Positions 39,531 to 48,705 of a stretch of DNA of 64,000 nt are shown piece by piece; position 1 is the first letter of the stretch, and each line of letters opens with the position of its first letter. A model generated the notes under the pieces. The model searched no databases. It was not told the origin of the DNA and worked only from the letters and a program-made list of their open reading frames with translations. Source of the stretch: a virus (Duplodnaviria > Caudoviricetes); IMG/VR virus record IMGVR_UViG_3300033463_000015; one strand, written 5' to 3'. The translations under genes were made by a program, and so were the position numbers.

Positions 39531-40117
39531 AGGAGATATTAGGTTAGTAAATTTTGAACCAAGTGAAGATGTGCTAACCACACAGCTTGGGCTATCCGTA
39601 TAGTAGCTGTCACTGCCCGAAGGATACTTTTGGTTAAACAGCCGCCAAAACAGCAATGTTAGGCGATAAAGGAGAAACTCCAAATACTAAGGATAGGCGC
39701 TTGGGTGTTCGCAATCAAAAGCACTTTTCCTCTCGGCTACATAATAGAAAGCTTGTTGAACAGACGAGCCGAATCCAGATAAGGCATTGGGGTGGTAGCC
39801 AATGCAAACTCTGGAAATACCATAAGTAGCTATCGGCGTTGATGAAAGCCGGAAACGGCATATAAGAGAGGTTTGTGGTGGGAGTAGGCCAAAGCGACGT
39901 ACAAGTAATATTGAATAAAAGAATTATTGAATATTGCTGAATGGTTTGGCTGAAACTTGAAGGTAGTCAATCCTTCCTACACACGGCGAAAGCGGATCGA
40001 AGAAGCTATGGGATCGCTACCTATGGCTCAGCCTTCGGTTCTGTAGTGGCTGAATATGATTGAAGAATTACTCGGGTACGGCGAAGGTCGCAACAGTTTA
40101 CTAACCTAATATCTCCT
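39531..40117 (+). ncRNA. Large structured RNA, probably ROOL class (587 nt)
   Basis: Own promoter; 21-bp perfect terminal inverted repeat; no ORF; size, tRNA-array context and 3' motifs resemble ROOL. Confidence 0.6.
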
Positions 40118-42708: not shown

Positions 42709-43061
42709 GGGGTAGTTTTGGTTTCGACAGGTTATGAATGGTATTGAAATCACGGGTAGGCGGCGCACCTTACGCAGCAAACAATTGAACTGACAACGAT
42801 TATTTCTATAGCGAACTAAAGGCTGCTTAATTGCAGTTTCGCGCCTAAACAACAAACCTGCTAATCGGTAAATGTTTGCGGTTCAGAGATAGATTAGTAG
42901 ATTGGCTTCGGGCCAGCTGGTCTTCTCTATTCACAGTCCAACGAATAGAGTGGTGGAAGGATCATTCCCAGTTTGTCAGAACTTAAAACTGACTATCGTG
43001 TAAGTAATTTTCAATATTGGTTGTAGCTTGGACAGGGGTTCAACTCCCCTCTACTCCACCA
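42709..43061 (+). ncRNA. ssrA: tmRNA; tag (A)DNDYFYSELKAA at 42792-42830
   Basis: GGGGTAG...GGTTTCGAC 5' end; 3' T-arm and CTACTCCACCA; tag ends AA-stop. Confidence 0.9.
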
Positions 43062-45151: not shown

Positions 45152-45649
45152 ATGTTTGATATTGAAGAAAATAAGCGTCTCTGCGACACATATCCCTTCC
45201 TTATTCCCTTCAATCGCTTCAGCGGCAAGCGTATTAACTGTGGCGAAAAAGGTTACTGGCCCGGTAATCCTGATGAGTATCCGCCAGAATGGAACTATGA
45301 ATATACAGAACTTGATGATATGCCAGATGGATGGCGTGATGCTTTTGGTGAACAATTGTGCTTTGAAATTAAACAAGCTTTGCTTGATGAAGGTGGCGAA
45401 AAGCTTCTTGATGAGTATCGCGTTGACCAAATTAAAGAAAAATATGGCACTTTAAGATGGTATGATAATTTTAGCACCAAACGCATTCAAGATATTCTTG
45501 AAAAATATGAAAATTTAAGTGCTCGCACTTGTATTAAATGCGGCAAGCCTGCTACTAAATTAAGCCGCGGGTGGATTGCCCCTTGGTGTGATGAATGCGG
45601 CAATGATGAAGATGAAGCGTATATGAGTTTAGACAATGCTTTTATTTGA
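45152..45649 (+). CDS. Conserved phage protein (QIKEKYGTLRWY family)
   Basis: QIKEKYGTLRWY and CIKCG...WCDEC motifs. Confidence 0.75.
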   Translation: MFDIEENKRLCDTYPFLIPFNRFSGKRINCGEKGYWPGNPDEYPPEWNYEYTELDDMPDGWRDAFGEQLCFEIKQALLDEGGEKLLDEYRVDQIKEKYGTLRWYDNFSTKRIQDILEKYENLSARTCIKCGKPATKLSRGWIAPWCDECGNDEDEAYMSLDNAFI

Positions 45650-45789
45650 CTTTTGATAAAAAATTTGATATAATATATATAGAAAGTAGGAAATCAGCGA
45701 GTTCTCCCACGAATAAAGTTAGCGCTGTAAAGGGTGGGAACGGTAGGCAGATAGAAGTTGTGAGGTCGCTGATAGGCAACAGATGAAAT

Positions 45790-46052
45790 AGCCCCGTAGT
45801 TGAATGGTACAACACCGGTCTCTAGCCTTAATTGGAGCCTTATATGGAGACGTATAAGTGAAAATGCCGCTAATTCGGTGAAAGCTTAACTGCTAACCCC
45901 GAGCAAGGAGAAATCCGTGTGTAGAGACTTTACACGGCACATCTAGAACAGATGAAGATAAAGTCCGGACCACGATGTGAAAACAATGTGGTGAAGAAAA
46001 CCGTAATATCCCTCTGACGGAGGTTGTCTGGGTTCGAATCCCAGCGGGGCCG
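45790..46052 (+). tRNA. Amber suppressor tRNA (CTA) interrupted by a group I intron
   Basis: Exons 45790-45823 + 45997-46052 give CGGT-CT-CTA-AA-ACCG; long variable arm; G73. Confidence 0.75.
45824..45996 (+). ncRNA. Group I intron (173 nt)
   Basis: Core elements AATTCGGTGAAAG / AACCCCGAGC / GTAGAGACT / AAGATAAAGTCC; IGS GGAG pairs exon CTCT with U.G at splice site; terminal G. Confidence 0.85.
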
Positions 46053-46054
46053 TC

Positions 46055-46203
46055 GCGACACTGTAGGCTTAGAAGTAGCCATCAGCTAAAGAGTTTATAT
46101 GCCTCCATTCGTGCGAAATGTATTATGGGCTACAAAAATTGTCCTATAAGTATGATGTGCGGTGGACAAAAGGTAAAATAATTTGGTGTAATAACACAGT
46201 CGC
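46055..46203 (+). ncRNA. 23S rRNA GTPase-associated-centre (L11-binding H43/H44) mimic RNA
   Basis: CTGTAGGCTTAGAAGTAGCCATCAGCTAAAGAG...GTGTAATAAC, closed by GCGAC/GTCGC. Confidence 0.75.
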
Positions 46204-46233
46204 ATTTTAGAAGCGTGAAAACGCTTCTTGTAT

Positions 46234-46367
46234 CTGGGTGTAGCGCAGTTTGGTAGCGCATCAGATTTGAAAATCTAGCATAACGGTAATGCTTTATATC
46301 AGAGTTCGATTCTCTGGATTTTCACGGGATCTGAGGGTCGTGAGTTCAAATCTCACCACCCAGACCA
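46234..46367 (+). tRNA. tRNA-Pro (TGG or CGG) with 57-nt tRNA-like insert in the anticodon loop
   Basis: CTGGGTG/CACCCAG-ACCA; TCAGA-TT...GGGA-TCTGA interrupted at 46268-46325. Confidence 0.85.
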
Positions 46368-46535
46368 ACAGGATGGCATGAAACCTGTCACAATCTGCAT
46401 AGCTGAGTGTAGATAAAAACATGCCTATCAGCATTTAGCGCCGTTGGGAACCTTATGGTGGAAGAGCCCTACAAGAAAGAGGCCGAGTAGTATCCGCAAC
46501 TCTTCCGGCGCATTTTTTTATTAAAAGGAGAAAAT

Positions 46536-46946
46536 ATGATAGCAAATATTTGTGAGCATTGCCAACACTTTTTAGAAGATCAAGCAGAATATCATTATTG
46601 CCATGTATGTAATATGGATCATAGTTGTTTTTTACTAAAAAACAAAGAAAAAGTTTTTTATCGTGTAATTACATTTTGTAATTTACCAAAAGAAGATGAC
46701 AATTTTCCACCAGACTATGACACACCAGCTTATTATGAAAATAAAGATGATGCTATTCAATGTGTAAAAGAAAATTGCTGTGATATTTATGAGGGTAGCT
46801 ATCCAGCCGCAATGGTAATTGAAACTGGATTTGGATGCTATCCATATTGCCCCAATCGTTGGTACTTTGAATGGGAAGGCGATTGGAGAACTGGTAAGTA
46901 TGTGCAAAAAGAAGAACCTAAATCATTGGAGCATTGGGGACTATGA
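46536..46946 (+). CDS. Cys-rich hypothetical protein
   Basis: AAGGAG RBS; 136 aa. Confidence 0.65.
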   Translation: MIANICEHCQHFLEDQAEYHYCHVCNMDHSCFLLKNKEKVFYRVITFCNLPKEDDNFPPDYDTPAYYENKDDAIQCVKENCCDIYEGSYPAAMVIETGFGCYPYCPNRWYFEWEGDWRTGKYVQKEEPKSLEHWGL

Positions 46947-48419: not shown

Positions 48420-48705
48420 GCGGGTATGGCGGAATAGGCAGACGCCACAGACTTTAATAAAAAGAGCACTAGAATAGGAAACTTTCTGAGTGAATGCTGG
48501 CTAATTCGGTGAAAGTCCTTATGGGATAACGCCGAGCTAAATGGTTTAAAACCTAAATGTGTAGAGACTATATACCAGCCACCTAAATCATAAGATATGG
48601 TGAAGACATAGTCCAGACTACAACGTGTAAGCGGCCATAGTAATATGGAGTAGTAGGAAAATCTGTTGCCCTCTGGGCGTGCCGGTTCAAGTCCGGCTAC
48701 CCGTA
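48420..48705 (+). tRNA. tRNA-Leu(TAA) with group I intron
   Basis: Exons 48420-48454 + 48658-48705 give ACAGA-CT-TAA-AA-TCTGT; Leu-type D arm. Confidence 0.85.
48455..48657 (+). ncRNA. Group I intron (203 nt), after U34
   Basis: AATTCGGTGAAA / AACGCCGAGC / GTAGAGACTA / AAGACATAGTCC core; IGS GAG pairs CTT; terminal G. Confidence 0.85.

Follow-up and report, generated by a model that had tools for sequence, protein, structure and literature searches.

A free-standing phage RNA, encoded among tRNA genes, that reproduces the fold of the 23S rRNA GTPase-associated centre

The element and its place in a phage tRNA region

The 64-kb stretch of phage DNA analysed here, which we call the window, contains a tRNA region with 20 tRNAs called by ARAGORN, a tmRNA, a ROOL RNA and group I introns. 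Positions 46055-46203 of its plus strand hold a 149-nt stand-alone non-coding RNA element, sited between two tRNA genes that lie on the same strand, one 2 nt upstream and the other 30 nt downstream. The features of the region, including the parts of the element in their order from 5' to 3' (numbered where relevant after E. coli 23S rRNA), are as follows.

39535-40110: ROOL RNA (Rfam, 332 bits).
42709-43061: tmRNA (95 bits).
45646-45674, plus strand: promoter-like site, TTGACT-17-TATAAT with a TG, near-consensus (11 of 12 positions match).
45790-46052, plus strand: tRNA with a CUA anticodon, read from the sequence, split by a group I intron (Intron_gpI, 45812-45990, 40.7 bits).
46055-46059, plus strand: 5' strand of the closing helix, GCGAC, corresponding to E. 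coli 1051-1055 at the top of H42 and pairing with 46199-46203.
46061-46085, plus strand: H43-like hairpin, CUGUAGGCUUAGAAGUAGCCAUCAG, equivalent to 23S 1057-1081.
46086-46094, plus strand: junction strand, CUAAAGAGU, read in the sequence as the mini-hairpin CUAAA (1082-1086) followed by GAGU (1087-1090).
46095-46181, plus strand: inserted hairpin domain of 87 nt, between 1090 and 1091, of a lineage-specific type with invariant internal loops GUGCGAAAUGUAU and AGUAUGAUGUG.
46182-46185, plus strand: UUUG linker, family-specific, absent from rRNA and highly conserved.
46186-46198, plus strand: H44-like hairpin and 3' junction, equivalent to 23S 1091-1103 and including U1092, A1095 (at 46190) and A1099.
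46186-46195, plus strand: the portion GUGUAAUAAC of the preceding feature, equivalent to 1091-1100 and followed by ACA.
46199-46203, plus strand: 3' strand of the closing helix, GUCGC, pairing with 46055-46059.
46209-46228, plus strand: stable hairpin of 8 bp, lying 3' of the element and 5' of the following tRNA (-11.4 kcal/mol, z -4.1).
46234-46364, plus strand: second tRNA, matched by the Rfam tRNA model (57.2 bits) but missed by ARAGORN, with 59 nt inserted in its anticodon loop.
48445-48630: further group I intron (65.5 bits).

From its sequence, the promoter-like site probably starts a small RNA operon in which a leader of 109 nt is followed in turn by the CUA tRNA, the element, the stable hairpin, the second tRNA and a conserved segment ending in a run of U. 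The hairpin at 46209-46228 may be a processing or stability element.

Several further observations concern these neighbours. A 45-nt promoter block (45639-45694) recurs at 82-87% identity in other loci of the set, with five copies in L093 and two each in L035, L149 and L077, and to judge by this recurrence it looks like a shared phage promoter type. The leader (45681-45789) is predicted to form a fold closed by AUCAGCGA/UCGCUGAU (z -2.45), has no Rfam match and could be another small RNA encoded in this operon. At the other end, the segment at 46436-46519 has a GCGCCG/CGGCGC closure followed by seven U; it is 82-95% identical next to the element in L053, L077, L156 and L193, and could serve as a terminator, or as a small RNA accompanying the element in the window's lineage. 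The second tRNA has an equivalent in L053 that lacks the 59-nt insertion.

Within the element, a 5-bp closing helix brings together two separated stretches of 23S-like sequence. A single A follows GCGAC and precedes CUGUAGGCUUAGAAGUAGCCAUCAG, the H43-like hairpin, in which A1067 falls at 46071, G1071 at 46075 and U1072 at 46076. The mini-hairpin comes next, then the 87-nt insert, closed by UUAU/AUAA, the UUUG linker and the H44-like hairpin. The three-way junction of H42, H43 and H44 is present with its conserved loop sequences, and an extra, fourth helix emerges at the junction. The two ends of the 149-nt RNA fold into a self-closed copy of that part of 23S rRNA which binds uL11 and meets the translational GTPases, the GTPase-associated centre (GAC).

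We compared the core of the element with positions 1057-1103 of E. coli 23S rRNA, taken from the annotated genome, and found 37 of the 47 positions to be identical. The ten differences are 1057 A>C, 1081 U>G, 1072 C>U, 1092 C>U, 1099 G>A, 1061 U>A, 1082 U>C, 1089-1090 AA>GU and 1101 U>A. Five of them compensate one another: C-G replaces A-U at the pair 1057-1081, and in the base triple 1072.(1092-1099) C.C-G has given way to U.U-A. The second triple of the window, 1071.(1091-1100), is G.G-C. As for the remaining changes, GU at 1089-1090 is the normal state of real Arthrobacter and Paenibacillus 23S rRNA, and C1082 opposite A1086 is a rare non-pair, found in 6 of 202 members of the family described below.

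These results bear out much of the first-pass annotation of this DNA. The sequence strings that it had reported occur where it had placed them, as do the GCGAC/GTCGC closure, the position of the element 2 nt past a suppressor tRNA (the CUA tRNA ends at 46052) and the changes in both the 1057-1081 pair and the 1072 triple; its insertion of about 90 nt measures 87 nt, the UUUG linker following as a separate part. Its statement that most differences from E. coli are compensatory needs correction, as some are, yet their share is half. The annotation had also noted that no other rRNA sequence surrounds the element, and our scan agrees: with Rfam 15 we found no rRNA anywhere in the 64-kb window at the gathering threshold, and no LSU match around the element at E values up to 10. 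The element itself likewise has no Rfam 15 match, either at the gathering threshold over the window or at E values up to 10 over 45640-46540.

A phage RNA family and the fold that it conserves

The first-pass annotation had proposed a covariance model and a database search. Pattern scans, followed by such a model, revealed a large phage family without an Rfam 15 match. Family loci were fetched by exact-pattern scans of IMG/VR, which gave 31 loci with the U1072 form of the hairpin, at least 118 loci with the C1072 form and, with a pattern from the H44 side, at least 119 loci. We aligned 56 diverse phage copies (alignment A1) and built the covariance model R1 from these phage copies only. R1 matched the window at 46052-46209 over model positions 1-172 (96.8 bits, E 3e-28) and found nothing else in the 64 kb, a match that is partly by construction because the window's copy is among the 56 model sequences. 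When R1 was run on the E. coli rrn operon, the true GAC was the only significant match (54.6 bits), and on the whole E. coli O157 chromosome it found the seven rrl copies and nothing else. The match between the window's element and the GAC is far beyond chance.

Of the viral loci fetched, about 143 of 149 and about 80 of 88 matched R1 over its full length, and at least 202 distinct full-length elements from IMG/VR remained after removal of duplicates. Almost all loci share one architecture, in which the closing helix is followed by H43 and UAAAGAGU, and these by an insert, UUUG and H44. The window has the features of this family, namely a closing helix of its own, a helix-closed insert between 1090 and 1091 and UUUG before G1091, and its element is a member of what is a very large phage RNA family, spread over phages of widely differing hosts and habitats. 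Cultured, published phages also carry the element, in each case without annotation:

Pseudomonas phage pf16 (a P. putida phage): R1 109.8 bits; element between tRNA-Asn and tRNA-Pro.
Aeromonas phage 4_4572: R1 99.1 bits.
Pseudomonas phage Milchi: R1 96.1 bits.
Xanthomonas phage XacN1: R1 94.3 bits; element just after a 2'-5' RNA ligase gene.
Cronobacter phage GAP32: R1 86.1 bits.

A scan of a bacterial genome collection yielded about 25 true elements in the first 100 of 120 matches, nearly all of them on contigs of metagenome-assembled genomes. The matches in isolate genomes were rejected as bacterial copies, being chance 16-mers. We also rejected a match in Paenibacillus phage Pd_22F as a family member, since that record holds a real 23S gene. 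The gene in question (L373, MZ092003.1, about 82.5-85.1 kb) is a nearly complete, unannotated bacterial 23S gene (Rfam LSU, 2639 bits), which may be host DNA or an assembly chimera.

Position within tRNA arrays is a family-wide property. tRNAs are present in 85 of 109 loci, and 668 of the 671 tRNAs in these loci lie on the element's strand; in 44 of the 109 loci a tRNA is directly adjacent to the element. No protein neighbour is conserved, the best cluster occurring in 10 of 219 loci, and the proteins encoded nearby include HNH endonucleases, a CCA-adding enzyme, TerD and similar proteins.

Covariation reveals which parts of the structure are under selection. In A1, 88% of cells pair, versus 63.5% in shuffled alignments; none of 500 shuffles reached 88%, and sliding the pairing partners abolished the signal. 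Covariation was seen in all seven of the seven closing-helix pairs, in the two lower H43 pairs (1057-1081 and 1058-1080), in five pairs that close the insert and in 1092-1099, with G1059-C1079, U1060 and the upper H43 pairs invariant in the family. The tertiary contacts behave in the same manner. Across 202 unique copies, counted as copies and not as independent events, 175 have C.C-G as the triple 1072/1092/1099 and 25 have U.U-A, there being one exception; 1071.(1091-1100) is retained as G.G-C in 199; and the 1082-1086 pair covaries, being U-A in 92, C-G in 52 and A-U in 25. The covariation of the triple was not imposed by the search, since the scans that fixed 1072 left 1092 and 1099 free, and vice versa. 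A1084, A1085, G1087, A1088 and G1089 are 100% conserved.

In the structure of the rRNA domain, 1072 contacts 1092 and 1071 contacts 1091, with bonds to 1099 and 1100, and two adenines are stacked in the 1082-1086 mini-hairpin (PMC2952862); all the tertiary contacts of that description are retained in the phage family. The claim of the first-pass annotation that selection acts on the tertiary fold is therefore upheld by three lines of evidence, namely the covariation of the helices, the covariation of 1082-1086 and the switching of the triple as a unit of three nucleotides. Together, these data strongly support the conclusion that selection keeps the GAC tertiary fold in a free-standing RNA. 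The family is also an independent set of natural covariation data for the tertiary structure of the GAC, including the switch from C.C-G to U.U-A.

The switch can be placed within the window's own lineage. Its nearest relatives, L051 and L053, are 83-86% identical to it and have the same type of insert, yet carry C.C-G where the window carries U.U-A, which indicates that U.U-A arose separately in the lineage of the window. We asked whether the U1072 state could have been copied from host rRNA, and it was absent from rRNA contexts in all 401 Bacillota genomes examined; the two matches were coding sequences, and for Bacillota this origin was rejected.

These findings bear on whether the element could be a functionless, captured fragment of a host 23S gene or an artefact of assembly. 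Real 23S genes do occur in some records labelled as phage, Pd_22F being an example. The window, however, holds no other rRNA, the element has a covarying closing helix of its own together with an insert and a linker that are absent from rRNA, and the family is present in complete genomes of cultured phages. We regard this explanation as hardly credible, the covariation excluding a captured rRNA fragment.

In contrast to the core, the insert is highly variable. Its length ranges from 0 (in L042, a 69-nt element) to about 360 nt, and the inserts fall into 158 k-mer clusters. That of the window belongs to a type common to about a dozen loci, an irregular hairpin whose inner helices covary in 12 relatives and whose internal loops are invariant. 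Set against the complete E. coli rrn operon, the inserts gave scattered chance words only and showed no similarity to other parts of rRNA, and the idea that the insert is a second piece of rRNA or a motif resembling the sarcin-ricin loop (SRL) was rejected on these grounds. Because the inserts are so diverse, and some members (L042 for one) lack them altogether, we conclude that the core, and not the insert, is the functional part.

The UUUG linker is a family-specific feature, with conservation of 93%, 97% and 92% for the three U and 86% for the G among 118 unique copies. It is complementary to the 1083-1086 strand, and pairing with 1082-1086 is possible in 79% of cells, without covariation. 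This complementarity makes possible an alternative pairing that would exclude the GAC fold, and the linker might mark such an alternative conformer.

The structured inserts, the internal loops invariant within lineages and the possible UUUG pairing, together with the location of the element in or near tRNA arrays, would also suit an RNA that uses its GAC-like fold without any target in trans, either as a compact scaffold, resistant to nucleases, that presents the insert or as an aid to the processing or stability of the tRNA transcript. Against such an explanation, what more than 200 copies have in common is the core and not the insert, which some members lack, and a mere scaffold has no need for loops identical to those of rRNA or for the exact rRNA tertiary contacts. 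We consider a role of this sort quite unlikely.

Single positions in the core also distinguish the family. A1101 is 96% conserved in the family and is U in E. coli and the other 23S sequences compared, and position 1061 (A in the window, U in E. coli) is variable. In the H43 loop, A1067 is A in about 82% of copies, G1068 is retained in 72% and A1070 in 75% of 67 unique, newly fetched, H44-anchored copies, values that understate conservation of the loop because 31 of the 119 loci, already fetched by the exact H43 pattern, were left out. Some family members have G, U or C at 1067. In H43-anchored copies A1095 is A in 92%, 1096 is A or G and 1097 is free.

Three further observations concern departures from the common form. 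The real 23S rRNA of Hymenobacter telluris (L364:688-755) has G1067 and C1097, where A and U are the usual states, so some of the phage copies that appear variant may mirror natural rRNA states. L006, L018, L153, L185 and L206 contain a second insertion, which forms an additional hairpin immediately behind A1077 on the 3' side of H43. Two reduced relatives were also seen, one at L024:1937-1982, which consists of the H43-like hairpin alone on a long perfect stem, and one at L042:3710-3778, the 69-nt three-way junction without an insert.

A proposed role away from the ribosome

The element is an RNA gene, conserved and under selection, with the fold of the uL11-binding domain and a place in a tRNA operon. 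We propose that it would be co-transcribed with the tRNAs and probably cut free by the enzymes that process them, and that the freed RNA would build up to abundance and imitate the GAC outside the ribosome. The C-terminal domain of uL11 binds the 58-nt rRNA domain in isolation, and host uL11 would thus be, through that domain, the most likely ligand of the free RNA. This accords with a report in which the isolated rRNA domain is described as the minimal uL11 binding site (PMC1802607). That the phage gene, transcribed and processed with tRNAs, specifies an off-ribosome imitation of the GAC with host uL11 as its most likely ligand is a proposal drawn from sequence and structure, which we hold with middling confidence. 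Any protein partner would have to come from the host, since a uL11 domain was found in none of 40 element-bearing phage genomes (125-518 kb, 25 of them at least 90% complete).

Several considerations temper the choice of uL11. The protein contacts mostly the RNA backbone, so sequence conservation cannot separate binding of uL11 from a need for the RNA fold. Counting against a decoy for uL11, A1067 (about 82%) and A1095 (92%) are well but not absolutely conserved, and A1101, the UUUG linker and the fourth helix could alter or occlude the face that uL11 binds. Moreover, since E. coli can live without uL11, it is not obvious what would be gained by titrating it. L10, which the first-pass annotation had put forward as a ligand beside L11, is unlikely to bind: the phage RNA has 5-8 bp of an H42-like stem without sequence constraint, and the lower part of H42 that L10 needs is absent.

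If the RNA does capture free or exchanging uL11, it would be expected to alter the activation of RelA, RF1-dependent termination at UAG and the GTPase turnover of translation factors; the consequences for RelA and RF1 are speculation. [quoted passage not shown] The idea of an effect on RF1 is attractive for the window, because the phage appears to be TAG-recoded and the element directly follows the CUA tRNA. Long open reading frames cover 0.41 of the window under the standard code versus 0.75 when TAG is read through, and the window looks like that of a TAG-recoded phage. We used this test for the window only and dropped it as a method for comparing stop-codon recoding across loci, because a control with TAA read-through came out as 'positive' in 64 loci.

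The first-pass annotation had suggested amber read-through as one of the effects to look for, but a special link to suppressor tRNAs or to UAG read-through finds no statistical support across the family. Just 15 of 165 tRNA-bearing family loci have a suppressor tRNA, and most members adjoin ordinary tRNAs. A CUA tRNA lies within 200 nt of the element in four of a set made up of 12 loci with ARAGORN CUA calls plus the window, where CUA was read by eye, and this proximity is about what compact tRNA arrays give by chance.

We also put forward a broader form of the proposal, tentatively and as one that we think possible but doubtful. In this form, large phages of many bacterial phyla would carry a dedicated RNA copy of a functional centre of the host ribosome that reprogrammes translation from off the ribosome, for example by stripping or capturing uL11. 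The stringent response that depends on RelA would be blunted, and where phages recode TAG, as this one appears to, RF1 termination would be weakened in favour of the adjacent suppressor tRNA; UUUG might switch the RNA between an inactive pairing and the GAC fold.

The same RNA, alone or together with uL11, might instead directly trap or relocate RelA or a translation factor (EF-G, EF-Tu, IF2, RF3 or RF1/RF2). The nucleotides that face the factors are largely conserved, and Munishkin and Wool are said to have reported in 1997 that EF-G binds oligonucleotide mimics of the GAC domain. In the ribosome, the GAC touches RF1 through uL11 and meets the GTPases (PMC3677378), and the TAG-recoding of the window's phage, with the element directly after a CUA tRNA, would fit a factor of this kind. 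Stable binding of factors, however, needs the SRL and the 30S subunit, and the inserts have no SRL-like motif; A1067 is replaced by G, U or C in some members; and the scarcity of suppressor tRNAs and the chance level of CUA proximity, described above, also count against it. We judge direct trapping of a factor to be unlikely.

A1067 and A1095 bear on a further explanation, because they are mostly retained although the fold does not need them. This would be expected if the RNA were a decoy for an attacker of the GAC, whether a host defence or a competitor's toxin acting on H43/H44 by modification or cleavage, or a thiopeptide antibiotic, and so kept the ribosomes working. There is precedent for an attack at this site in Tre23, which ADP-ribosylates 23S rRNA at the GTPase-associated site (PMC9990079). 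The carriers, moreover, are large phages with many countermeasures that concern translation, including tRNAs, tmRNA and tRNA repair genes. Against such a decoy, we know of no anti-phage system that targets the GAC. The wide spread of the family over hosts and habitats would fit a universal target better than it fits one toxin, and general exposure to thiopeptides is unlikely. Protection from a GAC attacker is, in our view, improbable.

If both the fold and the proposed action are confirmed, the family would be the first case of a virus imitating a ribosomal functional centre with a free-standing RNA, and the phage non-coding RNAs would gain a new class that ranks with phage tRNAs and tmRNA. 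The family would offer a natural tool for work on uL11, the stringent response and the recruitment of factors, and would represent a new phage route to take over or protect translation. Since the family is abundant and present in cultured phages of tractable hosts (pf16, GAP32, XacN1 and 4_4572), the question is directly testable.

Comparison with known RNAs

In the literature, both papers and preprints, we found no description of a phage mimic of the GAC or of the uL11 site, and the main text of the 224-motif paper makes no mention of 23S, L11 or GTPase. Judged by its sequences, the family appears to be a new kind of phage RNA; action as a mimic or sponge has precedents, and the function that we assign to it is inferred.

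By location, the closest counterparts are ROOL, GOLLD and phage tmRNA, which occupy the same niche in tRNA regions; the window itself carries a ROOL RNA and a tmRNA beside the element. They differ from it in structure and, unlike the GAC mimics, are represented in Rfam. By proposed mechanism, the phage RNA would resemble the sponge and mimic RNAs, such as 6S RNA, CsrB/RsmZ and bacterial Y RNA, in being an abundant RNA that titrates a protein; the likeness ends there, its sequence and structure being unrelated to theirs and its target different.

The operon leaders of ribosomal proteins, such as the L10 leader (RF00557) and the uL1 site in the L11-L1 mRNA, are similar in that a non-ribosomal transcript imitates the rRNA site of a protein (PMC10931766), and a mimic that binds uL11 is absent from the rRNA-mimicking leaders listed in that source. 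These leaders are cellular, act in cis on the mRNAs of ribosomal proteins and mimic their sites in part, whereas the phage RNA is viral, forms a complete three-dimensional domain, lies among tRNAs with no ribosomal protein gene nearby and has no match in Rfam.

The closest likeness of all is to the bacterial 23S GAC itself (E. coli 1051-1108, the 58-nt domain that binds uL11 and thiostrepton). The phage RNA has the same helices (the top of H42, H43 and H44), the loops GGCUUAGAAG(C/U)AGCC and G(C/U)GUAAnA(G/A)C, the 1082-1086 mini-hairpin with its two invariant adenines, both base triples, and the irregularity formed by U1060.U1078 and A1077. Unlike the 23S GAC, it is a free-standing gene that is not embedded in LSU rRNA and is closed by a helix of its own without sequence constraint. 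It carries a fourth helix of 0-360 nt between 1090 and 1091, the UUUG linker and an A at 1101, some members have the second insertion after A1077, and positions 1096 and 1097 are relaxed.
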